Assembly (NCBI GenBank): GCA_964408995.1
Contig: CAYPBP010000005.1
Span: 1 to 55,053, forward strand
Source: an uncultured Gammaproteobacteria bacterium
GTDB lineage: Bacteria; Patescibacteriota; Microgenomatia; UBA12405
Length of the DNA: 55,053 nucleotides
Reading direction: 5' to 3'
The notes under the pieces: model-generated
The model's input: only the letters and a program-made list of their open reading frames with translations
Told to the model about the DNA's origin: nothing
The model's database searches: none
Program-made: the position numbers and the translations under genes
Part shown: piece after piece, positions 16,419 through 48,263 of the stretch
How the letters are laid out: each line of letters opens with the position of its first letter
Numbering within the stretch: the first letter of the stretch is position 1

Positions 16419-16431
16419 TATACATATATAT

Positions 16432-17874: not shown

Positions 17875-17889
17875 AAATTAAAAATAAAA

Positions 17890-18912: not shown

Positions 18913-18929
18913 GACCTTAATAGACTTTT

Positions 18930-18955
18930 AAACCCCCGCACCCGCGGGGGTTTTT
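18930..18955 (+). terminator. Terminator-like hairpin (family C palindrome)
   Basis: aaacccccgc-accc-gcgggggttttt. Confidence 0.75.
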
Positions 18956-18969
18956 GATAAACTTATTTA

Positions 18970-20529: not shown

Positions 20530-20940
20530 ATGAATAAATATTTAGTTGTTATTATTTTTTTATCGATATCTTTAGTCGCCTCTCTTTCTTTGGTTTTAAA
20601 AACCACTGTTTTTGTCAACAAAGCTGCCAATGATAACCAATCTAGTGTTGCTCTTGAAAATTCTTATCTTTTTGTTTCCCCTCTTCAAGTTAAAGCTGAC
20701 AATAAAGAAAAAATGCGAGTTACTGTCTTTCTTCTAGATGGTCGTGGTCTTGGTGTTTCAAACCAAACTGTTGATATTTCCACTTCTAATAAAGTTAATA
20801 TTATAGAAGTTCAAAAAAATACTGATGAATCAGGTAAGGCTGTGTTTGATATCTCATCAGAAACTGCTGGTCAATTTAGTCTATCTGCTAAAAGTAATGG
20901 TAAAACCCTTCCTCAGCAAGTTAAAGTGGTCTTTTATTAA
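20530..20940 (+). CDS. Membrane-anchored Ig-like (Big-1/invasin-type) domain protein
   Basis: N-terminal TM; KADNKEKMRVTVFLLDGRGLGVSNQTV, TDESGKAVF. Confidence 0.75.
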   Translation: MNKYLVVIIFLSISLVASLSLVLKTTVFVNKAANDNQSSVALENSYLFVSPLQVKADNKEKMRVTVFLLDGRGLGVSNQTVDISTSNKVNIIEVQKNTDESGKAVFDISSETAGQFSLSAKSNGKTLPQQVKVVFY

Positions 20941-23587: not shown

Positions 23588-24001
23588 CTATTTAAAAGTT
23601 ACTTTAATTATCTTTCCTATTACCATTCCACCCACACTAGCTGTTAATTCATATTGTTTTGCTTGAGCAGAAGTCATTTCAAATTTAGCTTTACCAGAAT
23701 CATTAGTCATTGCATCTTGATCACCTAAGCCGGTTAATTTAATTTGTTTATTAGCAACTCCCTTCCCTTTGCTATCTAAGGCAAACACATTAACCACACA
23801 TTTATCTTTTCCATCAGCTTTAGCTAATATTTTTTCACCTATTACAATAGAATTCTTAGCCGAAACCTTACTGGAACCACTAGCTTTAGTCAAAAGAATT
23901 AAAGTATTTGGGATAACGGCCACTGCTAAGTAAATTACTAAGCCCAAAACCAATAAAAGACCAATTCCACTAAAAATAATCTTGTTTTTATTACCATTCA
24001 T
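23588..24001 (-). CDS. Membrane-anchored Big-1-type domain protein, paralog of 20530-20940 (likely start 24001)
   Basis: KADGKDKCVVNVFALDSKGKGVANKQI, TNDSGKAKF. Confidence 0.75.
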   Translation of the reverse strand: MNGNKNKIIFSGIGLLLVLGLVIYLAVAVIPNTLILLTKASGSSKVSAKNSIVIGEKILAKADGKDKCVVNVFALDSKGKGVANKQIKLTGLGDQDAMTNDSGKAKFEMTSAQAKQYELTASVGGMVIGKIIKVTFK

Positions 24002-24630
24002 TAACAAATCATAGCACAAAAGCACCTTTTTTCAATAAATTAGCAATAAATTAAGGAAACTGCTAATAAAGATTTTGTTTAATAAAAAAGCTTAAAGTAG
24101 GCATTTATTACAAAAAATCAAAGCTAAAAAGGCCAAAATTTAACCTAAAAAATATTTAATCAACCCAAAATTAGGCAAAACAGAGCAAATAAATACCTTT
24201 TAATGCTTTGTCCTTCTTTGTATATCAAATAGTCTCAAATTATAACCGTAAATATTTTCCTCAAAAAAACAAATAACAAGCACTTTTTTAAAAAAAATAA
24301 AAAAAATTGAGTAATTTTTTAACAAAATTAAATCATCTTTATACCCAAAAAGTATATCAATTAATATCTTTTAAGATATACCGCATTTCTCCGCATCAAT
24401 TCCATTTTTAAAAATTAAAAATTGGATATTTAGAATTATTTTATATTAGATTGATAGTAGATGTACTAAGCGTGATAATCATCGTGAAAGTATAAGTTTT
24501 AAATTAGAAATAAGAAAAATTTTTACAAGATAGTATCAAAAAACATCATTAAAATGCTAAAAAATACCTATTGACAGCCTTTTTCTAATAGTAGATAGTT
24601 ATATTAATTAATTATTAATTTATATAAACA

Positions 24631-24759
24631 ATGTATAAAACATATAACTTTGAACCTAAATCTTTATCACCGCAGAAAAAATACCATTTTCAAAAAACAG
24701 CTGAAAGTTTAGTGCCCTTTTTAATCATTGCGGCCACCTTTGTTTGGCTTTGGAAATAA
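24631..24759 (+). CDS. Small tail-anchored membrane protein (42 aa), not in ORF track
   Basis: MYKTYNFEPKSLSPQKKYHFQKTAESLVPFLIIAATFVWLWK; ends 6 nt before next ATG; TTGACA at 24571. Confidence 0.6.
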   Translation: MYKTYNFEPKSLSPQKKYHFQKTAESLVPFLIIAATFVWLWK

Positions 24760-24765: not shown

Positions 24766-25209
24766 ATGACTGCCCAAATCTTTGAATCCTACCAAAACTG
24801 GCTTAAAGCAAGATCTTATTCCAGTGCCACCATTAGAAACTACTTAGTTGACCTTAGAAAATACTTTCTTTTCACTAATCGAGATTCAGACGAGATATCA
24901 GATAACATTTTCAATTCAGACAATTTAAGCTCTTACTTTCAAAACATTAACCAAGACCAAAATTATAAACGTTTTTTAGCTTCGCTCTCTAAATTCTTTC
25001 AGTTTGCCTTAGATCAAAAACTAATTTCCAAAAGTCCTTTCAAAGAAGCTCTAAAAAATAATCAAGAAATAAAAGGCCATGATATTCCATCGGCTATAAA
25101 TTTATATAAACAACAGCTTGTTGCTAAAAAATCATCTCCATCAACTATACGAAACTATATCAACGACATTCATCAATTTATTAATTGGGCTTCAAGTGAA
25201 CCTAAATAA
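24766..25209 (+). CDS. Integrase core-binding (SAM-like) domain protein, 1.5 domains, no catalytic domain
   Basis: WLKARSYSSATIRNYLVDLRKY...KRFLASLSKFFQF...SPF, then QLVAKKSSPSTIRNYINDIHQFINW. Confidence 0.8.
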   Translation: MTAQIFESYQNWLKARSYSSATIRNYLVDLRKYFLFTNRDSDEISDNIFNSDNLSSYFQNINQDQNYKRFLASLSKFFQFALDQKLISKSPFKEALKNNQEIKGHDIPSAINLYKQQLVAKKSSPSTIRNYINDIHQFINWASSEPK

Positions 25210-28200
25210 TCTATTTACTACTTCTCGTCTAAACGAATATACTGCTTTCTTAAAAAGCACCAATCTTTCTGATGCCAGTCTTAAACGTAAGCTTTCTTCT
25301 CTTTCTTCTTTTCAAAAATTTTTAGTTAAAAAGAAACTAATTCAACCTGATTCAAACCCACTCACCTTCCAAACACCTTCTTTTAGCAACGAGACTATAA
25401 AAAAAAACATTGAAAACTCTATAAACCAACCTGAATTAAAAGCTAATTTTTTAAAAAAAATAATTTCCCGTTTCATACCAGATACTAAATACTTAATACC
25501 AAATACTAAACCAAACAATTTCTTATTCCGTTACATAACCATTTTCTCTCTTTTTGCTATTGGCGTTGGTCTTGGCTTCACTCTCTATCAACAAGCCTTT
25601 ATTCAATCAAATAAAAATCTAGCTTATTCAAATGCCAATAATCCAGTCAAAGCTGGTCGTTTTCTTTCCTTTCAAGGCCGTTTAACTGACTCTAGTGGTA
25701 ATCCTATTGTTGCAGAAACTGAGATCTATTTTCAACTTTGGAATAAAGATATTGGGGGTACTATGCTTTACACCACACTAGACAATGGTAACAGTCAAAC
25801 TGTTATCCCCGACGAAAATGGTATCTTTTCCATCACTATTGGTAAAAGTCATGGACCAGAAATACCTGCTGATGTATTTTCTGAAAATGCCGAAATTTGG
25901 TTGGAAATTACTGTTGACGATGAAACAATGGAACCTCGCCAACCTATTGCTACTGTTGCCTATGCTCTCAATGCTGAAACCTTGCAAGGTTTACCACCAG
26001 ATGCTGGCGGTTATAAAGATACAGTGCTAGTTATAGATTCCGAAGGTAACTTAAACTTAGGAGAAACTTCTCCTACTATCAAATCTATATCTGGGACCAT
26101 GGGTATTGAAGGTCAAGCTATTCTTATTAAATCTTCTGAAGGTTCTGGTGGCAATATTGATATTAATCCAGATGGTCAAGGTATAGTTCAGTTAATTAAC
26201 GAAGCTAGTGATGGTAGCCTTGTTGTTAGTAATACAAATTTAATAATGGGTAATCTTATTACTGGTCAAGTTAATACCGAAGAACGTGGCTATAATTTCA
26301 TCGATTTTCAAAATAAAGATGCTTTTGGTGATTTAACTAGTCGTTTCTCTGTCAATTCCTATGGTGATGCTTATATAGACAATGATTTAACTGTATCAAA
26401 CAACGCTGATATTGGTGGTAGCCTTTCTGTAAGTGATTATTCTATTTTTTCTAAAGGTATCGGTATCACTGGCAATTCTGCTTTTAATAATAATCTTTCT
26501 ATTGGTGGGACTTTAACTTTATCTCAAAATCCTGGAGCTGGTAAAATTCTTCAATCAGATGCTTTTGGTAATGCTTCTTGGGTTGACAATAACGGCAGTG
26601 GTGTAGGTGTTAGTTATTTTTCTGGATCAGGTTTAACTTTAAATAATGATACTTTCAAACTAGGCGGTGCCTTAACTGAAAATATGCGTCTTAATATTGG
26701 AAACACAGAAGCTTTTTATATTCAAAATTCAACTGGTAATATCGGTCTTGGTACCACTAATCCCACAGCAAAGCTTAGTGTAGTTGGTGATATTGGAGCT
26801 AATCAACTCAACATCACCACCTCAGGTGAAACTTTTGGACCTGGTACTATTATTTACTCAGCTAACTCCAACTTATCGGGTTCCATAAATACTGGCGATT
26901 TTAATAATGATGGTAAAACAGATTTAATTATTAACGATCAATATTTTTACAGGGTTAGAGTTTTTACTGGTAATGGTGATGGTACTTATCAAAATAGTAC
27001 TATTCATCAAACTAATGATATTAGTTATTTTGATCCATCATCAATAACTATCGCTGACTTCAATAATGATAATTATGACGACTTTGCTATTACTAGTAGT
27101 AATTATAGTGATCAAATTATTGTCTTTATTAATAATCAAAATAGTGATTTTGATTCTGGAACTAGTTATTTGGTTGATGGCTATTCATCTTCCATTAATA
27201 GTGGTGATTTTAATGGTGATGGATTTATTGACTTATTAACTAATAATCCAGACAGTAATAACATTAGTGTTTTTCTTAATAATAATGGTACTTTTGGAAC
27301 GGGTGTTACTTATTTCAGTGATACTTATGTATATAATACTGAAATTAGTGATTTTAATAGTGATGGTAAAGACGATTTAATTTATTTAGATGGTTATTCA
27401 GGTGACTTAACTGTAGTTCTTAGTAATAATGGCACTTTTGGAACTGGTGTTACTTATCCAACAAATAATTATGGAGATATTGAAATTAATGATTTTAATT
27501 TTGATGGTAAAAACGATTTTGTCGTTTATGATGGGTATTCTTTAGATGTTTATCTTAATAACAATGGTACTTTTAATAAAAGTACTTTTAATATTTCAAC
27601 AAGTGGTGTATCTCAAATTAATAGTGGTGATTTTAATGGTGATGATTATCCTGATTTAGTCACTAATACAGATTCCAACAACATTGCTGTTTTAATTAAT
27701 AATAATGGCACTTTTGAAAGTAATATTTACTATCCAACTAATGGAGATATATCAACTTCTATCACCACCGGTGATTTTGATAGTGATAATAAAGACGAAA
27801 TAGTATCAATCAATGGTAATACTAAAGTCAGTTTTTTTAATGAAAGACCAAACATATCTATCATTACTGATAATATTGGTAACATTGGTATTGGAACTAC
27901 TTCTAACTCTTTATATAAACTAACTGTTGTTGGTGATGCATTATTTTCTAATAAACTTTCAATTGGCGGTACTCTTTCAGCTAATTATATTTCATCTACC
28001 AATATTTACAATACCAACTCTGTATCCACCAGTAGTCTTTATACTACTTCTTTTAGACTTGCTAATAATGTTCATAATGGATATATTTTAACGAGTGATG
28101 TTTGGGGTAATGGCATTTGGACTGCCCCTTCAACTATTGGTACCAATTATGTTGCTGGCAACGGTATTACTATTAATAGTAGTAACCAATTTAAGCTTGG

Positions 28201-31200
28201 TGGTAGATTAACTGAAAATACTTCTATTGGTGTTTCTTCGTTTGGATTGTCTTTTCTAGGCCTAGGTAATACCCAAGCACTTTATATTGCTTCTACCGGG
28301 AGGATTGGTATTGGCACCACTAGCCCAAGTTATAAGCTTCATGTTATTGGTAATGGTTATTTTTCTACGAATCTTTCAGTTGGCGGAACTTTAACCCTAA
28401 CTCAAGGCGCTGGAGCTAATAAAATTCTTCAATCAGATGCTTCTGGTAATGCTTCTTGGGTTTCCCCTTCAAGTATTGGTACTACTTATGTCGCTGGAAA
28501 TGGTATTACTCTTAATAGCAGTAATCAATTTAAACTAGGTGGTAACTTAATTGAAAATACTTCTATTGGTATTTCGTCCTCTTATTTAAGATTTACTGCT
28601 GGTAATGGTAGTACTGAAGCCCTTTATATTTCTAATACCAGCAGAGTTGGTATTGGCACCACTAATCCTCTCTCTAAATTAAGTGTAGTTGGTTCTATTT
28701 CTGGTGATAACCTAGTTCTAGCTGGTAATGTTCAATTGAACAGTTTTGCTGGTTTTAATAATTACTTAGATAGCTCTGGCGGTCTTGGTACTGGTGGTAT
28801 TCAAAGAATAACTAGTACTGGTAATTTAACTAATATTAGCTCTATCCAAGCTGGACAACTTAATATTACTTCTGATTTTAATTTTAGTATTGGAACCAGT
28901 TACCCCATAAATATAGGAAGTTCTGAACCATCTTCTATAACTTCTGCTGATTTTAATGGTGATGGTAAACCTGATTTAGCTACCGCTAATGGTGGAAGTG
29001 ATAATATTACTATTTTTATTAATAACGGAAATGGTGCTTATAGTACTGGCGTTGATTACTCTAATAATATTGGAAGTCACCCATGGTCTATAACTTCCGC
29101 TGATTTCAATAGTGATGGTAAACCTGATTTAGCTACCGCTAATGGTGGAAAAGGAAATATCACAATATTTACCAACAATGGAGATGGAACTTTTGGAACT
29201 GGCATTACTACTCGCGCCCCATCCTATTCAAATTGGCATCGTTCCATAATTTCGGCTGATTTCAATAGTGATGGTAAACCTGATTTAGCTACCGCTAATA
29301 CTGGTGACAATAAAATAAATGTCTATCTAAATAATGGCAATGGTAATTTTATAAATAGCACTAATTATTCGGTTCCTTGCCAAGACCCATCTTCTATAAC
29401 TTCTGCTGATTTCAATGGTGATGGTAAACCTGATTTAGTTACTTACGAACAAGAGCACTCTACCCTTTGTGTTCTAACTAATAATGGTGGTAATTCCTTT
29501 ATAGGTACCACCAATCCTCAACCGGACATTGGTTATTCGCAAAATAATATTATTTCTACTGATTTTAATGGTGATAGTAAAACTGATTTAATAGTTACCT
29601 CCCATAAATATGATGGTGGTAATACGACAACCATGGTAAATATTTTAAATGGTATCGGTAATAGTACTTTTGGAGTTGGTGCTAGTTATCAAATGTCTCT
29701 AGATTCGTATACATATAACAATAGTATAACTACTAATGATTTCAACGGTGATGGTAAACCTGACATAGCTACTCAAAAAATGACTTGGGATGAAAATAAT
29801 TATTGGAGCTACAATACAGTTATTATCCCTAATAATGGTGATAATACTTTTGGTCTTGGCATTACTTATCCATCAACATATGGATGGCAAAATTCCATTA
29901 TTTCGAATGATTTTAATAGTGATGGTAAAGACGATTTAGCATATATAAGTGGTTCCACCATTAACGTTAATCTGAATAATTCTAACCCAACTCTTTTCAC
30001 TTCAATTTCGGGAAATGTCGGCATCGGCACTAGTAATCCTTTATCTAAACTAAGTGTTATCGGCGACGCTTCAATTTCAAGCAATCTTTCAGTCGGTGGA
30101 TCTTTAACATTAACTCAAGGAGCTCAGGAAGGATATATTTTAACTAGCGATTCAAACGGTAATGCCTATTGGGCTATAAGTGGCAGTGGTGGAATTGGTA
30201 CTGTCAATAATGGTCTTACTTTGTCTAATTATCAACTTCAATTAGGAGGTAATTTAATTCAAAATACATCAATTGGTGTTTCATCATTTGGACTATCATT
30301 TTTAAGTTCAGGCGATACTCAAGCACTTTATATTGCTTCTAATGGCAGCATTGGTATCGGTACCACCAACCCAACAGCAAAACTAAGTGTTGTTGGCAAC
30401 GCTTATTTTGCCGATAATGTCGATCTTGGTACTACTAATCAAACAGCAAAATTAGAAATAACAGGCAATATTAAGATTAACTCGATTAGTCATACATTAG
30501 ATACCGGAACCACTTATCCAGAAAATAATGATTATGGTAGGCCATGGGGTATCACTTCCGCCGATTTTAATGGTGATAATAAAATTGACATAGCTACTGT
30601 TGACCGCAGTCAACATAAATTTTTTATTTTTAATAACACCAACAATGGCAACTTTGATGTTGGTGCCAGTTATTATGTAGAATCGCCAACTTCCATCACT
30701 ACTGGTAATTTTAATAATGATGATAAACCTGATTTAGCCATAGTTAGTTGGCAAACTATTGGTGTTTTTACAAATGATGGCAGTGGTAATTTTGACACTG
30801 GCACAACTTATCCTAGTCATACATATGCATATAATAATAAAATTATAACCGCCGATTTTAATAATGATAGTAAAGATGATATAGCCGTTTCCTCCTACAA
30901 TGGTGACAGTTTTGAAATTTTTACAAATGATGGCAGTGGTAATTTTGGCACTGGCATAACTTATCCATCAACATCAGTAAGATCTATCGCTTCTGACGAT
31001 CTTGATGGTGATGGTAAAAAAGATTTAGTAACTTTTAATAACGGTTATATCACTATTTTTACAAATGATGGCAGTGGTAATTTTGACACTGGCACAACTT
31101 ATTCTGGATCTGGAGGAGCAACTAATTTTAACGGTTCACCAATGGCAATTGCCGATTTTAATAATGATAGTTTTAAGGATATAGCAACTTTAAATAATGA

Positions 31201-34200
31201 CTTATTTATTTTTACAAATGATGGCAGTGGTAATTTTGGCACTGGTGTAAGTTCCCCAGTTAATGCTGGAGCAGGTGATGGTATGGTTGCCACTGATCTT
31301 GATGGCGATGGCAGAATTGATTTAGTATCTACTGACAATAACAATCAAATAAACTTTTTAAAAAATAATGGTAACCATTCTTTTTCTAAAGATAGCAGCT
31401 ATCAAACTATAGAAAACAGACCAATTGATATTACTTCTGCTGACTTTAATAACGATGGTTTTAACGATATAGCTACTGCCAATGTCTGGGGTAAAGGTAT
31501 AACAGTTTTTCTAAATAAAATTGACGGCATTAACCCAACTTTTTTTACTAGTAATGGTGGTTTTGTTGGCATCGGCACCACCAATCCTACCCAAAAATTA
31601 GATATTGTTGGTGATATTAATCTAACTGGTACTATATTTGCCAATAATACTTCTGGCTCTAATGGACAAATTTTAAGTTCTACTGGAATTGGTTTATCTT
31701 GGATTAACCCTAGTTCTGTCGGTACCACCTATACTGCTGGAATTGGGTTAAGTTTAGCCAATAATACATTTCATCTTAATTTAGCTTCAACTAACACATG
31801 GACTGGCATTCAAAACTTTTCTACTGGAGCTACCATTTCCAGTCTTTCTGTTGGAGGTACCTTATCAGTTACTGGTAACTCTACTTTTACCAACAATCTT
31901 TCGGTTGGAGGTACCTTATCAGTTACTGGTCGTTCTACTTTTTCTAATGGTATTGGAATTACTGGTAACTCTACTTTTACTAACAATCTTTCGGTTGGTA
32001 ATACTTTGTTTGTCAATAGTAAATTAAAAATATATAATGGCGGAGTTAATACTAACAATTATGTTTTAACAAGTGATAATAATGGCAATGCCACTTGGAA
32101 ACAAAATATTCCTGTTCTTTACACCTCTTCCAATGGTATTACTCTTTCTGGTACTGAATTTAAACTTGGTGGTAGATTAACTGAAAATACTTCTATTAAT
32201 GTTTCTTCATCTTTTCTAAGATTTACTGCTGGTAATGGTAGTACTGAAGCACTTTACATTGCTAATACCGGTAGAATAGGTCTTGGTACCACTAGTCCAA
32301 GTAAAAAATTAGATGTTGTTGGCGATATTAATCTTAGTGGTACTATTTTTGCTACTGGAACTTCTGGATCTAATGGACAAGTATTAACTTCCACCGGTGC
32401 TGGTTTAGCTTGGATAGATTCTGCTGCTATTGGCACAAGTTTCTCTGTTACAAATGGTTTATCAAGTATATCAAACAATGTCTTTGGTCTTGGCGGCACT
32501 TTAACTCAAAATACTTCTATTGGTGTTTCATCATCTTTTCTAAAATTTACTGCTGGTAATGGTAGTACTGAAGCACTTTACATTGCTAATACCGGTAGAA
32601 TAGGTCTTGGTACCACTAGTCCAAGTAAAAAATTAGATGTTGTTGGCGATATTAATCTTAGTGGTACTATTTTTGCTACTGGAACTTCTGGATCTAATGG
32701 ACAAGTATTAACTTCCACCGGTGCTGGTTTAGCTTGGATAGATTCTGCTGCTATTGGCACAAGTTTCTCTGTTACAAATGGTTTATCAAGTATATCAAAC
32801 AATGTCTTTGGTCTTGGCGGCACTTTAACTCAAAATACTTCTATTGGTGTTTCATCATCTTACTTAAGATTTACTGCTGGTAGTAATACAGAATCTCTTT
32901 ATATTTCTAATACCGGTAGAGTCGGTATTGGTACCGCTAGTCCAAGCCAAAAACTTCATGTTATTGGTGATGCTTATTTTGCCAGTAATGTTGGTTTTGG
33001 AGTAGCTAGTCCTACCAAAAAAATTGATGTTGCCGGTGATATTAAATTAACCGGGAAACTCTTTGTTGGTTCGGCTGGTACTTCTGGTTCTGATAATCAA
33101 GTATTAATTACTAGTGGTGATAGCCTAAATTGGGTAGATGCAAGTTCAATCAATCAACCATTATCTTTTATGAATGGTTTATCAGAAATATCAACTAATA
33201 CTATTGGTCTTGGCGGTACCTTAACTAAAACTACTTCAGTTGGAACTTCATCTTTTGATTTATTTTTTCTAGATTCTAGCAATAATAAATCACTTTATAT
33301 TGCTTCTAATGGCAACATCGGTATTGGTAATACCACCAGTCAAAGCTTCAAACTTCATGTTACAGGTGACACTTTGATTGACGGTATCACTCAATTAAAT
33401 GGTAATGTTGGAGTTAGAGATAATCTTGCTGTTGGCAGCTTAACTATGAATTACGGATCCAGCAGTGGTTATATTTTAACCAGTGATAGCATTGGTAATG
33501 CTTCTTGGATTGCTCCTAATTCTATTGGTATCGGTACTAGTTATGCTGCTGGTAATGGTTTGAATATATCTAACAACCAATTTAAACTTGGTGGTAACTT
33601 AACTGAAGCTACTTCAATTGGAATTTCTTCATCATCGTTAAGATTTACTGCTGGTAATGGAAGTACTGAAGCACTTTATATTGCTTCTGATGGAAAAATT
33701 GGTATTGGTACAACTGCTCCAACTTCAAAATTAACAGTTATTGGTGGTGCTTCAATATCAACCAATCTAACCATTGGTGGTAGTTTAGTTTCTGTTGGTT
33801 CAACTAATTTAGTTACCAATCTTAATGCTCAATACCTTGGTGGTATTGGTGCTTCTGAATTTGTTGGTATAGGTCAAACTGGTGATTTCATTACTACTTT
33901 AACTAATGGAATTGGTATCACTATTACTGGATCAGGTGTTAGTCGAAATATTACTTTTGATTATGATTCTTCTCTATTAGCTACTGGTAATAAAATTGGA
34001 CTTAATCTTGGTTCTTCTAATACTTGGACTGGTCTTCAAAGTTTTAACAATATTAACATCGGCGGAACTCTAACTCTGGGTGTCGGCGCTAGTGCTGGTT
34101 ATGTTTTAACTAGTGATGAAAGTGGTAATGCTTACTGGGCATTTAACCCTGATACCGATACCACCTACACTGCTGGAAATGGTATCACTCTTGTTGGAAC

Positions 34201-37200
34201 TCAAATTAAACTTGGTGGAACATTAACTGAAAATACCTCTATTAGTCTTTCATCATTTGGATTATCTTTCTTAGGTTTAGGTAATACTCAATCACTTTAT
34301 ATTGCTTCAAGTGGTTATGTTGGTATTGGTACCACAAATCCTTCAGCTAAACTTACTATCAAAGGAGATTCTAACCAATCCACTTCCGATTTTACTTTAC
34401 TAAATGGTGATGACACTATTGGTTTAGAAATAAGGGCTGGAAATACCAATAAAGGTAATATCTTTATTGGTAAAGATGTTGGAAATTCGACAGTTGATTT
34501 TTATTCAAGTAACAACACTGCCATAGGAAATCAATCTTTTTATAAAAATACCTATGGAAATAGCAACACTGCTTTAGGCAATCAATCTCTTTATAGTAAT
34601 GTAAATGGAGATAGCAACACCGCACTAGGAAATAGTTCTCTCTATAATAATACCTATGGAAGTAAAAACATTGCTTTGGGCAGTGAATCTCTTTATAGTA
34701 ATATTGGTGGAGACAAGAATATTGCTTTAGGCAATCAATCTCTTTATAGTAATATAAATGGAGATAGCAACCTCGCACTAGGAATCAAATCTCTTTATAA
34801 TAATATCAGCGGAAATCAAAATATAGCTATAGGAGAGCTTTCTCTTGAAGAGAATATCAGCGGAAATAACAACATTGCTATAGGAATAGGTTCTCTTAAG
34901 AGAAATACCATTGGAAATAAAAATATTGCCATAGGAAATGGAACTCTTGTTGGTAATACTAGTGGGAATAGTAATATTGCCATAGGAACTGGATCTCTTG
35001 TTGGTAATACTAGTGGGAATAGTAATATTGCCATAGGAACTGGATCTCTTATGAATAATGCAGAAGGATCTGAAAATACTGCTTTCGGTAATTATTCACT
35101 TACTAATAATACTATTGGAGAACTTAATACTGCTATGGGCAGTGGATCTCTTGGTGGTAATATTACTGGAACATATAATACTGCTATAGGTGGTTATTCT
35201 CTTACGACAAACATTGGTGGAACTCAAAACACCGCCATAGGAACTGGATCTCTTATGAATAATGCAAATGGATCTGATAATACTGCTGTAGGAGCTATGT
35301 CTCTTTTAAACATTACAACTGGATCTAATAATACTGTTTTAGGATCTAACAGTCTTTTAAATGGAACAAATCTTAATTCTAATATTGCCATTGGTTATCA
35401 AGCTGGTTATTTATTGGGGATTGGCTCTAGTAATATTTTTATTGGTAATGATATTGGTGCTTCAGGTGATTACGATAATAGTCTTTACATCGGTCATGGT
35501 ACTAACCCAATTATTTTTGGTAATTTAGCTAATGGTAATATCGGTATTGGTACTACTAATCCTTCCAAAAAGTTAGACGTTATTGGCGATGCTTCAATAT
35601 CAACCAATCTAACCATTGGTGGTAGTTTAGTTTCTGTTGGATCAACTAATCTAGTTACCAATCTTAATGCTCAATACCTTGGTGGTATTGGTGCTTCTGA
35701 ATTTGTTGGTATAGGTCAAACTGCTCCTTTCATTTATACTGCCACTAATGGTCTAACCCTAGCTTCTAATCAGTTTAAACTCGGTGGAGAATTAACTGAA
35801 ACTACTAGGTTAAATATTGGCTCAACTGAAGTTCTATATATATCTTCTACTGGTCTCATTGGTATCGGTACTACTAATCCAACAAATACTTTAAAAGTAT
35901 TTAACTCAACTGCTGGCATTGAATCTGCTCCTCTAATTGTTCAACAAGGTATTGCTTACGCTAGTCCTTATACCCAATATATTCAAACATGGAAAAATAG
36001 CGCTGGAACAAACGTTGCTCATATGAGAGCTGACGGATCTTTAACTACAAATAATAATAAATCAACAATATATCAAGCAACAGGCACTGGTTCAACTACA
36101 ATTCCAGTTTTTTCAAATAGTAGCGCAAATGCTGGTATCTATTTTCCATCAACAACTAACTTGGGTTTTGTCACTAATAGAACTGAGAGAATGAAAATAA
36201 CTGATACTGGCCTCATTGGTATTGGTACCACTAATCCAATTTACAAACTTGATGTCATTGGTGATGCTTCAATATCAACCAATCTAACCATTGGTGGTAG
36301 TTTAGTTTCTGTTGGTTCAACTAATTTAGTTACCAATCTTAATGCTCAATATCTAGGTGGTATTGGTGCTTCTGGATTTGTTGGTATAGGTCAAACTGGT
36401 GATTTTATTACTACTTTAACTAATGGAGTTGGTATTACTATTACTGGATCAGGTGTTAGTCGAAATATTACTTTTGATTATGATTCTTCTTTATTGGCTA
36501 CTGATAACAAAATAGGTCTTAACTTAGCTTCCAATAATATCTGGACTGCACTTCAAACATTTACTAATGGTATTGGTGTTAGTGGTGATGCTAACTTTAC
36601 TAATAATCTAACCATTGGTGGTACTTTAGTTTCTGTTGGATCAACTAATCTAGTTACCAATCTTAATGCTCAATACCTTGGTGGTATTGGTGCTTCTGAA
36701 TTTGTTGGTATAGGTCAAACTGGTGATTTCATTACTACTTTAACTAATGGAATTGGTATCACTATTACTGGATCAGGTGTTAGTCGAAATATTGCTTTTG
36801 ATTATAATACTTCTTTATTGGCTACTGATAATAAAATAGGTCTTAACTTAGCTTCCAATAATATCTGGACTGGACTTCAAACATTTACTAATGGTATTGG
36901 AGTTAGTGGTGATGCTAATTTAACTAACAATCTAACCATTGGTGGTACTTTAGTTTCTGTTGGATCAACTAATCTAGTTACCAATCTTAATGCTCAATAC
37001 CTTGGTGGTATTGGTGCTTCTGGATTCGTTGGTATTGGTCAAACTGGAGATTTCATCACTAGTCTTAGTGTTGGTGGCAGTGGTTTATCTATTGAAGGTA
37101 GTGGAATTGGTAGAACTCTTACTAACACTGGATTAGTTGATATTACCAACACTACTCTTATCCGTAGTGGTTCTGATGGTAACTATACTGTTGGTCTTAA

Positions 37201-39475
37201 CTTAGCTTCCAATAATATCTGGACTGCACTTCAAACATTTACTAATGGTATTGGTGTTAGTGGTGATGCTAACTTTACTAATAATCTAACCATTGGTGGT
37301 ACTTTAGTTTCTGTTGGATCAACTAATCTAGTTACCAATCTTAATGCTGATTTATTAGATGGTTATAATTCTTCTAGTTTCATTTACACCGCCACTAATG
37401 GTCTAACCCTAGCTTCTAATCAGTTTAAACTTGGTGGACTTTTAACTCAAAATACTGATATTGGATTGTCTGGTTTTACCTTAAGTTTTTCTGATGGTGG
37501 CAACACCTTAGTTTCCTTTAGTAATAGTGGTAACACTTTTTATAACCCAACTACATTTGCTTCTGGTGGTGATGTTTCTATTGCTTATAACTTAAATCTT
37601 ACTAATTCTACTGGTTCAAACATTAATACTGCTGGTCCAATTTCTATAAATGCTGGTGAAACATTTAATTCCAGTAATTTAACTCTCCAAACCTATAACG
37701 CTGGAAAAATAATTCTTAATTCATCTAATCTTTGGAATGATGGTACTAACTTTGGTATTGGTACCACCACCCCTTTATATGCCTTAGATGTTTTAGCATC
37801 AGGCACCACTTTAGTTGCTCGTTTTGGAAGCAGTGAAGGTAGTAGTTGTACTTTTAATGGAGATGGCACTCTTATGTGTAGTTCTGATTCTCGTCTTAAA
37901 ACTAATATTAACAATATTGATTATGGTTTAGATACTTTATCTCAATTAAGAGCTGTTGATTTTAATTGGAAAACTGATTCATCTAACACTTTAAAAAGTC
38001 TTGGATTTATCGCTCAAGAAGTTGAATCTCTTGTTCCTAAGCTAGTAATGACCGATACTAATGGCCATAAACAATTAAACACTATTGGACTTGTTCCAAT
38101 AATAGTCAAATCCATTCAAGAACAACAAGTTCAAATTGAAGACTTAAAATCTAGTCTAAACATCACTTCCACTGGTCAAATAAATGTCACTTCTAATATC
38201 TCTGATAAAGTCTTAGCTTCTCTTGGTTATTCCGGTGCCAAAAACGAGATAGAAAATGCTAGTTATTCCATCACCAACACTACTGGACAAACAGTTTCTC
38301 GAATTGGTCAATTTAGTCAAATCGCCTCTGCTAAAATAAAAGCCGGTCTAATCTCTACCACTAATCTTATTGCTGACAATTTAGTTGCCAAAAATATTAT
38401 TACTAATAATATAGTTTCTCCAAAAGCCACTATTAACGAGCTAACCGCTGAAAAAATAACCTCTACAGAAATAACTGCTGATGAAGTTACTGTTTCTAAT
38501 ACATTAACTACTAATCAACTAATTACTAATAATCTAGAAGCTAGTGAAGCTAGCGTATCTAATTTATATGCCGATAACATCATCACTAAAGACGGTTCCA
38601 TCTCCGATGTTATGGCCAACAAAGTTTCATCTCTTCGAGATGAACTTACTAATTTAATTGCCTCTAGTCAATCAACTCCAAGTGCTATTAGTGGCACTTC
38701 AATTATGTCTCTTTCCTCTGGTTGGTATATGGACATCGCCAGTGATTCAGCCAAAATAGAAGGTGATTTAGCTCTTACCAACAATTTAATTGTTGGTGCT
38801 AAATTAACTGTCAATGGCGACACTCAACTTGGAAATGCCTTTATAACTGGCACTTTCACCACTGGTGAAATTGCTATTAAAGAAAATTTTATTGAAACCA
38901 CTAATACTGCTCTTTATTTACAACCATCCAATACTGGTTCAGTTCACATTATGGGAGACACTTTAGTTATTGCCGACAATGGTGAAGTCCAAATCAATGG
39001 AGATTTAAAAATTTCTGGTTCTCTTATTGCCAATCTCATCACTGCCAATGAAATCCAAACTGATAAATTAACCACCAACGAACTAAACTCTAATCAATTA
39101 ACCTCAAACGAATTAACCTCCGACAAACTAAACATTGCCACCGATTCTGCTAGTCAAATAATTATTGCTGAATCTGGATTTGGATACTTAGCCACCTCCT
39201 CTGCTCAATTAGTTTCCAATGCTACTGCTGGCACTTCCGTTCTTCCAGCTGATAAAACTGAATTGATTATTAAAAATAATAAATTAACACAAAATTCTAT
39301 CGTTTATTTAACTCCAGTTGGCTCAACCAATAATCAAGTTGTCTATCTTAAAGAGAAAATGGTTTATTCTGAAACCGAGTTACAAAACAATCCTGACTTA
39401 CAAAACTACTTCATCATCGCTCTCGACCAATACCTAGATAAAGATATTACCATCAATTGGTGGATTATCAACTAA
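25118..39475 (+). CDS. Giant membrane-anchored tail-fibre/adhesin-like protein (functional start GTG 25196 or frameshift fusion with upstream ORF)
   Basis: Half core-binding domain, TM at ~25535-25588, FQGRLTD...WLEI..PRQPIATVAYA module, GIGTT repeats, 21 FG-GAP-like repeats, 17-aa NTAxG repeats, SSDSRLK...GFIAQEV S74-like domain, WWIIN end. Confidence 0.92.
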   Translation: MLLKNHLHQLYETISTTFINLLIGLQVNLNNLFTTSRLNEYTAFLKSTNLSDASLKRKLSSLSSFQKFLVKKKLIQPDSNPLTFQTPSFSNETIKKNIENSINQPELKANFLKKIISRFIPDTKYLIPNTKPNNFLFRYITIFSLFAIGVGLGFTLYQQAFIQSNKNLAYSNANNPVKAGRFLSFQGRLTDSSGNPIVAETEIYFQLWNKDIGGTMLYTTLDNGNSQTVIPDENGIFSITIGKSHGPEIPADVFSENAEIWLEITVDDETMEPRQPIATVAYALNAETLQGLPPDAGGYKDTVLVIDSEGNLNLGETSPTIKSISGTMGIEGQAILIKSSEGSGGNIDINPDGQGIVQLINEASDGSLVVSNTNLIMGNLITGQVNTEERGYNFIDFQNKDAFGDLTSRFSVNSYGDAYIDNDLTVSNNADIGGSLSVSDYSIFSKGIGITGNSAFNNNLSIGGTLTLSQNPGAGKILQSDAFGNASWVDNNGSGVGVSYFSGSGLTLNNDTFKLGGALTENMRLNIGNTEAFYIQNSTGNIGLGTTNPTAKLSVVGDIGANQLNITTSGETFGPGTIIYSANSNLSGSINTGDFNNDGKTDLIINDQYFYRVRVFTGNGDGTYQNSTIHQTNDISYFDPSSITIADFNNDNYDDFAITSSNYSDQIIVFINNQNSDFDSGTSYLVDGYSSSINSGDFNGDGFIDLLTNNPDSNNISVFLNNNGTFGTGVTYFSDTYVYNTEISDFNSDGKDDLIYLDGYSGDLTVVLSNNGTFGTGVTYPTNNYGDIEINDFNFDGKNDFVVYDGYSLDVYLNNNGTFNKSTFNISTSGVSQINSGDFNGDDYPDLVTNTDSNNIAVLINNNGTFESNIYYPTNGDISTSITTGDFDSDNKDEIVSINGNTKVSFFNERPNISIITDNIGNIGIGTTSNSLYKLTVVGDALFSNKLSIGGTLSANYISSTNIYNTNSVSTSSLYTTSFRLANNVHNGYILTSDVWGNGIWTAPSTIGTNYVAGNGITINSSNQFKLGGRLTENTSIGVSSFGLSFLGLGNTQALYIASTGRIGIGTTSPSYKLHVIGNGYFSTNLSVGGTLTLTQGAGANKILQSDASGNASWVSPSSIGTTYVAGNGITLNSSNQFKLGGNLIENTSIGISSSYLRFTAGNGSTEALYISNTSRVGIGTTNPLSKLSVVGSISGDNLVLAGNVQLNSFAGFNNYLDSSGGLGTGGIQRITSTGNLTNISSIQAGQLNITSDFNFSIGTSYPINIGSSEPSSITSADFNGDGKPDLATANGGSDNITIFINNGNGAYSTGVDYSNNIGSHPWSITSADFNSDGKPDLATANGGKGNITIFTNNGDGTFGTGITTRAPSYSNWHRSIISADFNSDGKPDLATANTGDNKINVYLNNGNGNFINSTNYSVPCQDPSSITSADFNGDGKPDLVTYEQEHSTLCVLTNNGGNSFIGTTNPQPDIGYSQNNIISTDFNGDSKTDLIVTSHKYDGGNTTTMVNILNGIGNSTFGVGASYQMSLDSYTYNNSITTNDFNGDGKPDIATQKMTWDENNYWSYNTVIIPNNGDNTFGLGITYPSTYGWQNSIISNDFNSDGKDDLAYISGSTINVNLNNSNPTLFTSISGNVGIGTSNPLSKLSVIGDASISSNLSVGGSLTLTQGAQEGYILTSDSNGNAYWAISGSGGIGTVNNGLTLSNYQLQLGGNLIQNTSIGVSSFGLSFLSSGDTQALYIASNGSIGIGTTNPTAKLSVVGNAYFADNVDLGTTNQTAKLEITGNIKINSISHTLDTGTTYPENNDYGRPWGITSADFNGDNKIDIATVDRSQHKFFIFNNTNNGNFDVGASYYVESPTSITTGNFNNDDKPDLAIVSWQTIGVFTNDGSGNFDTGTTYPSHTYAYNNKIITADFNNDSKDDIAVSSYNGDSFEIFTNDGSGNFGTGITYPSTSVRSIASDDLDGDGKKDLVTFNNGYITIFTNDGSGNFDTGTTYSGSGGATNFNGSPMAIADFNNDSFKDIATLNNDLFIFTNDGSGNFGTGVSSPVNAGAGDGMVATDLDGDGRIDLVSTDNNNQINFLKNNGNHSFSKDSSYQTIENRPIDITSADFNNDGFNDIATANVWGKGITVFLNKIDGINPTFFTSNGGFVGIGTTNPTQKLDIVGDINLTGTIFANNTSGSNGQILSSTGIGLSWINPSSVGTTYTAGIGLSLANNTFHLNLASTNTWTGIQNFSTGATISSLSVGGTLSVTGNSTFTNNLSVGGTLSVTGRSTFSNGIGITGNSTFTNNLSVGNTLFVNSKLKIYNGGVNTNNYVLTSDNNGNATWKQNIPVLYTSSNGITLSGTEFKLGGRLTENTSINVSSSFLRFTAGNGSTEALYIANTGRIGLGTTSPSKKLDVVGDINLSGTIFATGTSGSNGQVLTSTGAGLAWIDSAAIGTSFSVTNGLSSISNNVFGLGGTLTQNTSIGVSSSFLKFTAGNGSTEALYIANTGRIGLGTTSPSKKLDVVGDINLSGTIFATGTSGSNGQVLTSTGAGLAWIDSAAIGTSFSVTNGLSSISNNVFGLGGTLTQNTSIGVSSSYLRFTAGSNTESLYISNTGRVGIGTASPSQKLHVIGDAYFASNVGFGVASPTKKIDVAGDIKLTGKLFVGSAGTSGSDNQVLITSGDSLNWVDASSINQPLSFMNGLSEISTNTIGLGGTLTKTTSVGTSSFDLFFLDSSNNKSLYIASNGNIGIGNTTSQSFKLHVTGDTLIDGITQLNGNVGVRDNLAVGSLTMNYGSSSGYILTSDSIGNASWIAPNSIGIGTSYAAGNGLNISNNQFKLGGNLTEATSIGISSSSLRFTAGNGSTEALYIASDGKIGIGTTAPTSKLTVIGGASISTNLTIGGSLVSVGSTNLVTNLNAQYLGGIGASEFVGIGQTGDFITTLTNGIGITITGSGVSRNITFDYDSSLLATGNKIGLNLGSSNTWTGLQSFNNINIGGTLTLGVGASAGYVLTSDESGNAYWAFNPDTDTTYTAGNGITLVGTQIKLGGTLTENTSISLSSFGLSFLGLGNTQSLYIASSGYVGIGTTNPSAKLTIKGDSNQSTSDFTLLNGDDTIGLEIRAGNTNKGNIFIGKDVGNSTVDFYSSNNTAIGNQSFYKNTYGNSNTALGNQSLYSNVNGDSNTALGNSSLYNNTYGSKNIALGSESLYSNIGGDKNIALGNQSLYSNINGDSNLALGIKSLYNNISGNQNIAIGELSLEENISGNNNIAIGIGSLKRNTIGNKNIAIGNGTLVGNTSGNSNIAIGTGSLVGNTSGNSNIAIGTGSLMNNAEGSENTAFGNYSLTNNTIGELNTAMGSGSLGGNITGTYNTAIGGYSLTTNIGGTQNTAIGTGSLMNNANGSDNTAVGAMSLLNITTGSNNTVLGSNSLLNGTNLNSNIAIGYQAGYLLGIGSSNIFIGNDIGASGDYDNSLYIGHGTNPIIFGNLANGNIGIGTTNPSKKLDVIGDASISTNLTIGGSLVSVGSTNLVTNLNAQYLGGIGASEFVGIGQTAPFIYTATNGLTLASNQFKLGGELTETTRLNIGSTEVLYISSTGLIGIGTTNPTNTLKVFNSTAGIESAPLIVQQGIAYASPYTQYIQTWKNSAGTNVAHMRADGSLTTNNNKSTIYQATGTGSTTIPVFSNSSANAGIYFPSTTNLGFVTNRTERMKITDTGLIGIGTTNPIYKLDVIGDASISTNLTIGGSLVSVGSTNLVTNLNAQYLGGIGASGFVGIGQTGDFITTLTNGVGITITGSGVSRNITFDYDSSLLATDNKIGLNLASNNIWTALQTFTNGIGVSGDANFTNNLTIGGTLVSVGSTNLVTNLNAQYLGGIGASEFVGIGQTGDFITTLTNGIGITITGSGVSRNIAFDYNTSLLATDNKIGLNLASNNIWTGLQTFTNGIGVSGDANLTNNLTIGGTLVSVGSTNLVTNLNAQYLGGIGASGFVGIGQTGDFITSLSVGGSGLSIEGSGIGRTLTNTGLVDITNTTLIRSGSDGNYTVGLNLASNNIWTALQTFTNGIGVSGDANFTNNLTIGGTLVSVGSTNLVTNLNADLLDGYNSSSFIYTATNGLTLASNQFKLGGLLTQNTDIGLSGFTLSFSDGGNTLVSFSNSGNTFYNPTTFASGGDVSIAYNLNLTNSTGSNINTAGPISINAGETFNSSNLTLQTYNAGKIILNSSNLWNDGTNFGIGTTTPLYALDVLASGTTLVARFGSSEGSSCTFNGDGTLMCSSDSRLKTNINNIDYGLDTLSQLRAVDFNWKTDSSNTLKSLGFIAQEVESLVPKLVMTDTNGHKQLNTIGLVPIIVKSIQEQQVQIEDLKSSLNITSTGQINVTSNISDKVLASLGYSGAKNEIENASYSITNTTGQTVSRIGQFSQIASAKIKAGLISTTNLIADNLVAKNIITNNIVSPKATINELTAEKITSTEITADEVTVSNTLTTNQLITNNLEASEASVSNLYADNIITKDGSISDVMANKVSSLRDELTNLIASSQSTPSAISGTSIMSLSSGWYMDIASDSAKIEGDLALTNNLIVGAKLTVNGDTQLGNAFITGTFTTGEIAIKENFIETTNTALYLQPSNTGSVHIMGDTLVIADNGEVQINGDLKISGSLIANLITANEIQTDKLTTNELNSNQLTSNELTSDKLNIATDSASQIIIAESGFGYLATSSAQLVSNATAGTSVLPADKTELIIKNNKLTQNSIVYLTPVGSTNNQVVYLKEKMVYSETELQNNPDLQNYFIIALDQYLDKDITINWWIIN
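32221..32861 (+). repeat. Tandem 324-bp coding duplication
   Basis: 32221-32537 identical to 32545-32861; the track shows identical antisense ORFs 324 bp apart. Confidence 0.92.
34508..35425 (+). repeat. Eighteen 17-residue NTAxG beta-solenoid repeats (51-bp period)
   Basis: e.g. NSNIAIGTGSLVGNTSG; one unit duplicated at DNA level from 34944. Confidence 0.85.
36281..37340 (+). repeat. Tandem coding repeats of 324, 324 and 354 bp, with dispersed copies at 33764 and 35606
   Basis: aatctaaccattggtggta recurs at 33764, 35606, 36281, 36605, 36929, 37283. Confidence 0.88.
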
Positions 39476-39670: not shown

Positions 39671-40408
39671 TTATTGTGCTAATAACCCAAAATTGTCCAA
39701 ACACCCATTAGAGACAATAATACCCGTCGATCCTGTTCTTATCCCTGTTGAGATGTTTCGAACCACCTTGGTATTATTAAAATAAATACTTATAGTTCCG
39801 GCAACATCTGCCACAACTTTAAGTTGATACCACTTATCGCTATCAAATGTACGTCTATTGCCAGTGTAATACGTAACCCCTTCAATCACTTCTTCCATTT
39901 GAACACTATCATTGTCTGGATAAGCTTTTATCATGATATAGTTTTGTGGACTTTCATACCACAAAACTACTCCAGCATACCCACCATCCATTACATTGAA
40001 ATCAACCTTAACTGTTTGGTTTGACGCCTGAACATCATTCAATAATAACATCCCCAATTCAAGATTTTTTTGCTTCAATACACCATCTTCAATTAACCAA
40101 TTTCCAGAAACGCTATTCCACTTTGACAAATTACCAGAAAATTCATCCGATTCAAGAATATTTAAACCAGCTGCATTTTGCAAAGTAATCAAAGCATCAA
40201 TCGAATTAATAGAACCATTAAAGTCAGTATCATAACGCCATAAATCTTCACTAGCCGGAGGACCTACTAAACCAGCTGCATTTTGCAAAGTAATCAAAGC
40301 ATCAACCGAATTAACCATTCCATTTTTATTTACATCTCCAAGACCACCATTATCACCTAAAGCTCTAGTCTCAAAAGCTCCTACATTTAAAGACATAGTA
40401 GTTGCCAA
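39671..40408 (-). CDS. Dockerin-like tandem repeat plus beta-sandwich (LamG/DUF1080-like) protein; start uncertain
   Basis: GDVNKNGMVNSVDALITLQ and DTDFNGSINSIDALITLQ (37-bp identical DNA); DEFSGNLSKW...GNW...GSTGI. Confidence 0.8.
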   Translation of the reverse strand: MATTMSLNVGAFETRALGDNGGLGDVNKNGMVNSVDALITLQNAAGLVGPPASEDLWRYDTDFNGSINSIDALITLQNAAGLNILESDEFSGNLSKWNSVSGNWLIEDGVLKQKNLELGMLLLNDVQASNQTVKVDFNVMDGGYAGVVLWYESPQNYIMIKAYPDNDSVQMEEVIEGVTYYTGNRRTFDSDKWYQLKVVADVAGTISIYFNNTKVVRNISTGIRTGSTGIIVSNGCLDNFGLLAQ

Positions 40409-48238: not shown

Positions 48239-48263
48239 GAATAATAGTTTTAAAGTATTTTTT

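Follow-up and report, generated by a model that had tools for sequence, protein, structure and literature searches.

A giant membrane-anchored protein made of phage tail-fibre parts in the genome of an ultrasmall Microgenomates bacterium

What would an ultrasmall bacterium do with a giant gene that is put together from the parts of phage tail fibres? This question is raised by a locus in the 55,053-nucleotide stretch analysed here (contig CAYPBP010000005.1 of assembly GCA_964408995.1, positions 1 to 55,053; hereafter, the window). A single gene (25196-39475) of a bacterium from the Microgenomates, within the Candidate Phyla Radiation (CPR), encodes a protein of 4759 amino acids (aa) that is anchored in the membrane and made of phage tail-fibre parts. 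The answer that we favour, as a probable one that falls well short of certainty, is that this gene belongs to a conserved three-gene unit of Microgenomates and that its product, a giant type-II membrane protein, forms an autocleaved trimeric fibre on the cell surface, of the same kind as the mosaic adhesive trimer (MAT) fibres of Bdellovibrio and the tail fibres of phages. The trimer, the length of the fibre, its cleavage, its part in adhesion and the tethering of a host cell are what we infer from homology.

The giant gene and its modules

The open reading frame (ORF) counted mechanically from a TTG at 25118 runs to 39475 through 4785 uninterrupted codons (coordinates are those of the window, features lie on the forward strand unless the reverse strand is named, and residues are numbered from this TTG throughout). 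At ~33% G+C, stops make up ~7.5% of random codons, or ~1 per 13 codons by simple arithmetic, so that an open frame of this length is not due to chance and represents a real gene. A preliminary description of the locus, made from the sequence alone, had placed the start of the gene at the TTG. The single frame ending at 39475 is upheld, whereas the supported start is the GTG at 25196 (V27), which agrees with the public gene call of 4759 aa on the source contig and with the nearest homologues, which begin with M/V/L-NLNNLF at the residue equivalent to V27. With this start, the first 14 nt of the gene are shared with the end of the upstream gene, including its stop. A scan for promoters and terminators in the upstream region yielded signal no higher than the shuffled expectation.

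The modules that the preliminary description had listed are all present, and in the order given there, as judged by Pfam, pattern counts and Tandem Repeats Finder (TRF). From the N-terminus to the C-terminus, the protein consists of half of a SAM-like domain, one transmembrane (TM) helix, a module with the motif LSFQGRLTD, units with the motif GIGTT interleaved with FG-GAP blocks, 108-aa repeats, a solenoid of 17-aa units, an S74 domain and a C-terminal region. The TM helix, a signal anchor at aa 135-157 (25520-25588), was identified by hydropathy as the sole 19-residue window in the whole protein with a Kyte-Doolittle value above 1.6. Its K/R-rich flank lies on the N-terminal side and thus, by the positive-inside rule, the N-terminus is inside the cell and the protein is a type-II membrane protein.

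The TM helix is followed by a conserved module (hereafter, the N-module; 25649-26437, delimited by AlphaFold2 and the locus scan described below) that begins at aa ~183, carries the only LSFQGRLTD motif of the protein, comprises a beta-sandwich and a second beta subdomain and would form the base of the fibre. The AlphaFold2 model of the N-module has a mean predicted local distance difference test score (pLDDT) of 77.6, with values above 90 across the beta-sandwich (aa ~180-285). The module showed no significant match in the PDB by either fold or sequence, no match among the PHROG families and no significant fold match in a library of viral structures; the fold searches with the models of the two end modules returned merely generic Ig-like or dioxygenase-type beta-sandwiches and a weak match to the C-terminus of a tailspike. 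In several S74 proteins from outside the CPR (P0181, P0182, P0045, P0039 and P0118), the N-module follows a signal peptide. A search with an N-module profile built from members outside the CPR recovered short fragments and a few named proteins of Zixibacteria, Ignavibacteria, Bipolaricaulia and Patescibacteria, with no named Bdellovibrio protein among them. The beta-sandwich, which comes right after the TM helix, is close in size to the ~130-aa N-domain of the MAT fibres.

The middle of the protein is a shaft into which three FG-GAP blocks are inserted. A pattern search found 21 calcium-loop motifs, arranged as three blocks of exactly seven, and the Pfam scores for the protein are correspondingly strong (FG-GAP_3, E 7e-93; FG-GAP, E 9e-61). 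Seven repeats per block with calcium loops of the DxDxDG type are the hallmark of propellers of the integrin-alpha type and, at the level of sequence, each block is a predicted 7-bladed beta-propeller. The first block (26840-27832) contains seven DxNxDGxxD motifs at aa 595-887 and is matched by both FG-GAP_3 and FG-GAP; the second (28901-29962; aa 1279-1599) has an internal period of 153 nt according to TRF; and the third occupies 30515-31507 (aa 1817-2110). The blocks alternate with shaft units of the MAT beta-helix type that carry GIGTT, a motif found 19 times in the protein. Between the first and the second block (27833-28900), the motif lies at aa 923, 1047, 1063 and 1177, in a segment that matches the tail-fibre family phrog_9942 (E 2e-7), and between the second and the third (29963-30514), at aa 1634 and 1745. 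The third block is followed by a long run of such units (31508-34495), which is related to MAT structures, phrog_9942 and phrog_18345 and includes an array of 324-nt (108-aa) repeats at 32177-32971 (2.5 copies, 93% identical). Next comes the solenoid (34511-35479; aa 3132-3454), with 18-19 units of the form xNxAxGxxSLxxNxxGx that keep a perfect 17-residue register with zero indels, a periodicity of 51 nt that TRF reports as well. The distal shaft (35480-37870) contains a second 324-nt array (36281-37348; 3.2 copies, 87% identical) and ends in a beta-helix that abuts S74, the matches to tail-fibre PHROGs extending into the S74 domain.

The preliminary description saw in this architecture a domesticated phage tail fibre, which is a putative direction of descent; the nearest solved relatives of the shaft repeat are cellular, namely, the MAT fibres of Bdellovibrio. 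In a phmmer search of the PDB, aa 2440-2660 matched the MAT structures 8ond (Bd2133; E 5e-9), 8ojn (E 7e-5), 8ol4 and 8onf (both E 1e-4) and 8oml (E 0.013), in alignments that span the motif GxVGIGTxxPxxxLxVxG and thereby include the G-I-G-T-x-x-P...L-x-V cap by which a shaft unit is recognised. Phage tail fibres are related to the protein as well. The solenoid matches phrog_6002 (E 7e-55) and the tail-spike family phrog_4636 (E 6e-46), the S74 domain together with the region before it matches more than 25 PHROG families, mostly tail fibre or baseplate, and tblastn returned 411 phage records with 30-43% identity, chiefly over the solenoid and S74. Neither the whole protein nor its segments showed a Pfam match to Hep_Hag or to the YadA anchor, the signatures of trimeric autotransporters.

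Such matches, together with the title 'tail fiber domain-containing protein' that NCBI gives to relatives, could be taken to mean that a tail-fibre gene of a phage or prophage, or what is left of such a gene as it decays, happens to lie within the chromosome. The surroundings and the distribution of the gene make this reading hardly credible. Pfam scans of the 30 neighbouring ORFs detected no phage structural, packaging or lysis family. What they did detect were an M16 peptidase, LeuRS, ComEC, ComEA, pyruvate formate-lyase and its activase, NUDIX, DUF559, PPDK, Rho, CinA, RadA, DUF1015, an M23/LysM peptidase and a Wzy_C-TPR protein, along with envelope proteins (Big_1 twice, a LamG/DUF2341 protein and a dockerin protein). 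At the edge of the window, on the reverse strand, lie a 5S rRNA gene (54587-54703) and the 3' end of a 23S rRNA gene (54868-55053); no tRNA gene was found across the 55 kb. A phage gene would be expected to sit in a phage genome and to have genes for the tail, the baseplate or packaging beside it; here, the company consists of housekeeping and envelope genes with rRNA nearby, and two other assemblies (loci L001 and L002) show the same gene order, PPDK ... Big_1, Big_1, SAM gene, fibre. Furthermore, a TM anchor with a cytoplasmic domain would make no sense on a virion, and the ORF is intact over 14.3 kb.

The distribution of the end modules points in the same direction. The locus scan of species-representative genomes employed degenerate patterns and a narrower N-module alignment (A3), the wider one (A2) being too diverse, and yielded 366 related loci in genomes of cellular species. 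By contrast, neither the N-module nor the module that follows S74 has a relative in 2.9 million viral contigs. Among the best 80 loci, every title informative of lineage is Patescibacteria or Microgenomates, about half of the taxon labels being uninformative or discordant; Shapirobacteria are the closest, with up to 63% identity. The preliminary description had called the protein chromosomal and membrane-anchored, with the architecture of a phage tail fibre and no phage structural or packaging genes in the window, and had made its case depend on whether the closest homologues lie in prophages. In each of these respects it is borne out: the gene shows synteny with other Microgenomates genomes, the protein has a signal-anchor helix near its N-terminus, its shaft, solenoid and S74 region are homologous to tail-fibre and tailspike families, and the nearest homologues do not lie in prophages.

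The S74 chaperone and the constant C-terminal region

The S74 domain, an intramolecular chaperone and autoprotease (37871-38152), is identified by Pfam PF13884 at aa 4256-4310 (E 6e-14; 52.5 bits vs a cut-off of 22). Its catalytic dyad consists of Ser4256 (37883-37885) and Lys4261 (37898-37900), which are five residues apart in the motif S-D-S-R-L-K. The domain aligns to gp37 of phage S16 (6f45) including its SSDRRIK, so that the two share the catalytic motif SSD(S/R)R(L/I)K. At least 28 relatives keep the motif SD.R.K.N[IV], usually at a distance of 440-600 aa (and at most 790) from the C-terminus. Likewise, S74 is not terminal in the giant protein, where 446 residues come after it, corresponding to a conserved region of ~440 aa that forms the C-terminal end in ~30 aligned homologues.

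The larger portion of this region (hereafter, the post-module; 38153-39196), as defined by the homologue alignment and AlphaFold2, comprises periodic beta segments, one long helix and a beta-helix resembling bactofilin, the match to Bactofilin being weak (E 0.007). It is the best-conserved part of the protein, with 50-64% identity between species and a mean column identity of 46%. A profile search revealed no relative of the post-module in the PDB, and its model has no significant structural match there. Inspection of the segment right before the post-module in the 88 relatives with enough upstream sequence showed that it is of the S74 type in 45, related to Peptidase_G2 in 38 and neither in 5. 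The G2-type segment occurs at this junction in P0385, P0010 and P0009, among others, and that of P0385, the reference, passes the Pfam threshold for Peptidase_G2 ('IMC autoproteolytic cleavage domain'). The presence of two unrelated self-cleaving chaperones at one and the same junction argues that cutting there is a selected function, and selected cutting in turn implies that the mature fibre has parted from its constant C-terminal piece.

The last ~85 residues (39197-39472; 84 profile positions) are modelled confidently (pLDDT 77-90) as a beta-sandwich that ends in NWWIIN and that we denote the WWIIN domain. It is absent from Pfam and NCBIfam. An exhaustive search of 1.84 billion cluster representatives with the WWIIN profile yielded 2374 matches at E <= 1e-3, of which 1071 were at E <= 1e-10, in proteins of 68 to 6346 aa; nearly all of the best 150 matches place the end of the domain no more than ~10 residues from the C-terminus. 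One carrier is a neighbour in the window (40575-41804), a protein with an N-terminal TM helix, TPR repeats (Pfam) and a WWIIN domain at 41574-41801, which matches the giant protein with BLASTP E 4e-10 over the last 86/73 aa. A search with hmmsearch and a profile that included both of these sequences detected no third copy in the window. On the whole, WWIIN has the appearance of a lineage-specific sorting or anchoring domain. In ~35 full-length proteins of 1500-6346 aa, the post-module and WWIIN form one side of a bracket, of which the other side is the (half) SAM-like domain, the TM helix and the N-module; between them lies a variable shaft with 4-40 GIGTT motifs, in which the solenoid is optional.

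What the detached piece is for can be read in more than one way. Because the post-module follows self-cleaving chaperones and WWIIN ends thousands of otherwise unrelated envelope proteins, the piece is most likely, as far as homology allows one to judge, a handle for assembly or for docking to the envelope that is removed on maturation, and not an adhesive tip. One could also suppose that the detached trimer of 530-aa C-terminal pieces is the real effector, an adhesin or needle that is either released or associated with the tip, and that the shaft serves to deliver or present it. The conservation of the post-module, greater than anywhere else in the protein, would fit such a role, as would its periodic beta segments, long helix and beta-helix. 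These elements are also used in the needles and spikes of phages. However, a receptor-binding tip is expected to vary, and here the module and the WWIIN motif are nearly invariant, the latter within a domain common to unrelated proteins. Moreover, no enzymatic or toxin family matches the post-module, nor does it have a significant structural match, and we consider an effector quite improbable.

A second reading deserves somewhat more weight, although we still regard it as unlikely: the protein might be part of a coat or mesh, fixed at both ends, with the TM helix in the membrane and the post-module and WWIIN in the wall or S-layer. S74 would then be a trimerisation clamp that cuts slowly or not at all, and the propellers and the solenoid would lie along the cell surface instead of projecting from it. 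Both ends of the family are indeed conserved and the middle is variable, and WWIIN is strictly C-terminal on thousands of envelope proteins, including the TM-TPR neighbour, which is already anchored in the membrane; by analogy, this pattern is typical of wall-binding and sorting domains, such as SLH, LPXTG and the C-terminal domain (CTD) of the type IX secretion system (T9SS). The Ser-Lys dyad speaks against such a clamp, being strictly conserved in relatives, and where S74 is missing, G2 usually takes its place, as would be expected if cleavage is selected. In the systems tested, S74 domains that bear the dyad do cleave (PMC10769870).

The cytoplasmic end and the neighbouring genes

The preliminary description had noted that the giant protein starts with half of a DNA-binding domain. 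It does hold only half of a SAM-like domain, but the missing half is at hand, in the ORF immediately upstream. This ORF (24766-25209), which is read in another frame, encodes a small, cytoplasmic SAM-like protein of 147 aa with one whole SAM-like domain (Phage_int_SAM_1 over aa 7-85, E 1e-12) and the first half of a second, aa 116-146 corresponding to positions 7-38 of the 85 positions of Phage_int_SAM_4. The second half lies in the cytoplasmic portion of the giant protein (25217-25336), where aa 34-73 correspond to positions 44-83 of the 83 positions of Phage_int_SAM_1. Among the 80 species-representative loci, ~50 have a separate ORF for a whole-length homologue of the small protein, with its end where the fibre gene starts. 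Three kinds of junction occur: an overlap with a frame shift, as in the syntenic loci L001 and L002, where the small gene overlaps the fibre gene by 11-14 nt; an ATGA overlap (L039); and a stop that is separated from an ATG by a spacer containing GAGGG (L006, L007 and L028). Fused forms also exist, ~10 more distant loci and the proteins P0123, P0136, P0140 and P0146 having two or three complete SAM-like domains in one ORF. Judging from these sequences, the split within the second SAM-like domain is an old gene fission that has been maintained, because it recurs in ~50 species with varied junctions and proper translation signals.

Two other explanations of the split were considered. A sequencing frameshift or a pseudogene at 25196-25209 is ruled out by the recurrence of the split in ~50 species with different junction geometries. 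A programmed +1 frameshift at the stop codon of the upstream gene appears unlikely because the slippery context that the window shares with L002 is not conserved in L001. In addition, NCBI labels N-terminal fragments of relatives as 'site-specific integrase', and this label proved wrong. The tyrosine recombinases are matched solely in their SAM-like N-domain, after which the TM helix and the fibre come next; the Phage_integrase catalytic domain was not found, and the XerC and XerD models reach only 17-40 bits vs cut-offs above 300.

The third member of the unit is a micro-protein of 42 aa (24631-24759; the sequence begins with MYKTYNFEPK and ends with PFLIIAATFVWLWK) with a C-terminal hydrophobic helix, which was recognised in the ORF list and by its conserved neighbours. 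Its gene is situated 6 nt upstream of the SAM-like gene, and homologues occupy the position directly upstream of the SAM-like gene in 48 of the 82 related loci (jackhmmer, E 3e-28 to 2e-11), which is the reason why we count three genes in the unit. The copy in L002 differs from that in the window at 5 of the 42 residues, and a homologue is present even at L029, a locus with the fused SAM-like form.

The half domain of the giant protein probably pairs with the complementary half on the 147-aa protein, which would hold the latter at the base of the fibre. The two SAM-like halves constitute a natural split-domain pair.

Whether more than docking takes place at the base is a matter on which the same data can be read differently. 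The fibre could be a transmembrane signalling device akin to ToxR or to anti-sigma systems, in which tension on the fibre or a bound ligand acts through the single helix on the split SAM-like domain and so controls the release of the small SAM-like protein or its binding to DNA. All family members have domains of a DNA-binding type on the cytoplasmic side of an extracellular giant, and one and a half of these domains reside on a soluble partner, in a split that is conserved in ~50 species with proper translation signals. However, SAM-like domains without the recombinase catalytic domain are only putative DNA binders, release cannot be general given that in distant relatives the domains and the membrane protein form one chain, and a purely structural role at the base, such as docking or oligomerisation, accounts for the data equally well. 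We therefore assign a low probability to a signalling function. A broader proposal fares little better and stays speculative: the three-gene unit would couple contact with a host to gene regulation across the membrane, with the 147-aa soluble half held at, or released from, the cytoplasmic base of the fibre and the 42-aa micro-protein as a co-anchor, and WWIIN would be a lineage-specific sorting or anchoring signal of thousands of Microgenomates envelope proteins.

Upstream of the three-gene unit, two small proteins with a Big_1 domain (an Ig domain of the invasin type) and an N-terminal helix, at 20530-20940 and, on the reverse strand, at 23588-24025, enclose a protein of 862 aa in which DUF2341 is combined with three LamG (Laminin_G_3) domains (20996-23584); the Big_1 pair adjoins the fibre unit in L001 and L002 as well. 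These proteins, assigned by Pfam, make up an island of envelope proteins around the fibre gene. Downstream, on the reverse strand (39671-40408), lies the gene of a 245-aa protein with a type I dockerin followed by a domain that resembles the 3-keto-disaccharide hydrolase (LamG fold), which suggests that a partner of the cohesin type may be encoded elsewhere in the small genome. Further upstream are two paralogous gene pairs (7739-9398 and 16345-19851), each encoding a secreted pilin-like protein and a protein with a C-terminal TM helix. The pilin-like copies match each other with E 6e-15 and the C-terminal-TM proteins with E 3e-7 (BLASTP), neither member of the pairs has a match in Pfam or the PDB, and L001 and L002 have a syntenic counterpart of the second cluster. 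By their sequence features, the two pairs fit the description of the Pam pilins of CPR bacteria and their membrane-anchored chaperones. Between rho and cinA, a stretch of 1.2 kb (48117-49290) has no ORF longer than 49 aa and no Rfam match at the gathering threshold.

The related loci also bear on how such genes fare in public data. Many of the loci L003-L082 end at contig ends within a few kb of the N-module, and the gene call of L002 breaks down into frame-shifted sequence inside the FG-GAP repeats. Giant repetitive fibre genes are, in this sample, commonly broken in metagenome assemblies, and the fragments are misnamed, as 'site-specific integrase' or 'cytoskeletal protein CcmA'.

A model of the fibre and its relation to known systems

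Taken together, these observations can be combined in a simple model of the membrane-anchored, autocleaved fibre. Under this model, the chain would be exported via Sec, with the N-terminus retained in the membrane. The S74 domains near the C-termini would set three chains in register, and trimeric folding of the shaft would then proceed from the C-terminus towards the N-terminus, as it does in phage spikes. S74 would cut before Ser4256, freeing a 530-aa fragment that consists of S74, the post-module and WWIIN and leaving a mature membrane-anchored fibre of ~4230 residues. The Bd2133 fragment, in which 370 residues measure 142 Å (PMC10769870), provides a scale by which the ~2800 residues of the shaft outside the propellers would give a fibre roughly 0.1 µm long. 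With three propellers per chain, the fibre would display three tiers of three calcium-binding FG-GAP knobs, nine in total, and the propellers and the solenoid could offer surfaces for binding, both lateral and distal. Adhesion to a host cell would follow from the precedent of the MAT fibres and from the lifestyle ascribed to CPR bacteria.

Several points weigh against this model. The post-module is more conserved than the shaft and, as far as the alignments go, could equally be the functional end of the protein; its monomeric AlphaFold2 model is poor, with a mean pLDDT of 56. The PHROG profiles that span S74 end within ~10 positions of the match, so that the behaviour of an S74 domain in an internal position is an extrapolation. 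The propellers are also a peculiarity of this protein: FG-GAP repeats occur in the close relatives P0121, P0002, P0003 and P0006 too, but ~60 family representatives of at least 1000 aa carry 0-5 of them, compared to 21 in the window. We know of no precedent for the insertion of a 7-bladed propeller into a trimeric beta-helix shaft, nor of a host organism for this lineage.

The family bears on a largely unknown matter, the manner in which CPR bacteria find and hold their hosts. The appendages implicated to date are type IV pili and, since very recently, Pam pili; conserved as it is across hundreds of Microgenomates species, the fibre family offers a concrete candidate for a surface appendage of a third kind. 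The family appears to carry the principle of the MAT fibres of Bdellovibrio, a mosaic trimeric shaft with swappable binding modules, into a second lineage. It has distinctive features of its own, namely, a SAM-like domain split across two genes, either S74 or G2 before a constant module, and a strictly C-terminal domain with at least 2374 clusters. In practical terms, the conserved end modules offer a means of finding the fragments of giant genes in metagenomes and of joining them correctly.

Among known systems, the MAT fibres of Bdellovibrio bacteriovorus, trimeric beta-helix fibres on the surface of the predator (Caulton et al. 2024, PMC10769870), are the closest parallel. In both cases, the genes for phage-like fibres are chromosomal, Bdellovibrio being a bacterium that fastens itself to others; four MAT crystal structures contain a beta-helix that the 108-aa GIGTT unit matches in sequence; S74 has the SDxxxK motif, cleavage having been shown biochemically for Bd3182 (PMC10769870); the middle or distal part is mosaic and swappable; and a conserved beta-rich module comes right after the export signal, a likeness of position that may or may not extend to homology with the MAT N-domain. 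The differences are equally clear. The giant protein belongs to Microgenomates/CPR, not to Bdellovibrio, and, with 4759 aa, is 4-5 times longer than the MAT proteins (~1000 aa); it is anchored by a TM helix with a cytoplasmic split SAM-like domain in place of a cleaved signal peptide; three FG-GAP propellers are inserted in its shaft; and its S74 precedes the conserved 440-aa module and WWIIN, whereas in MAT proteins S74 or an alternative tip ends the protein.

The giant protein shares with phage fibres the Ser-Lys dyad of S74, here aligned to gp37 of S16 and also represented in Peptidase_S74 by the endosialidase of K1F and pb1 of T5, as well as the tail-fibre and tailspike PHROGs that match its solenoid and shaft, and its relatives use at the S74 position a G2-type chaperone of the phi29 gp12 kind (Peptidase_G2). 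Unlike phage fibres, it has no virion-attachment domain and no phage genes nearby, and it has an N-terminal membrane anchor. The short-period, Asn/Gly-rich solenoid (NxAxG...) recalls trimeric autotransporter adhesins with YadA-like heads, and some relatives carry Pfam Hep_Hag (PF05658); unlike adhesins of the YadA type, the giant protein lacks a C-terminal beta-barrel anchor and keeps a 17-residue period in perfect register. WWIIN can be compared by analogy to the C-terminal domain of T9SS cargo, LPXTG and SLH in that it stands at the extreme C-terminus of many unrelated secreted proteins and has a conserved terminal motif, but it has neither sequence nor significant fold similarity to them.

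Within the CPR, a search of the literature library available turned up no paper that links S74, endosialidase or FG-GAP fibres to these bacteria. A preprint on Pam pili states in one sentence that a tail-fibre-like gene is consistently found near the pam operon in Saccharimonadia and Microgenomatia (bioRxiv 10.64898/2026.03.03.709456), and the two pairs of pilin-like and membrane-anchored chaperone-like genes upstream of the fibre resemble such loci, a comparison made by description only. The concept of a host-attachment fibre assembled from phage-like parts is thus already published for Bdellovibrio (PMC10769870); not previously described are the WWIIN family, the propellers inserted in the shaft, the TM anchor together with its split SAM-like domain, and the internal position of a chaperone that has a constant module after it.

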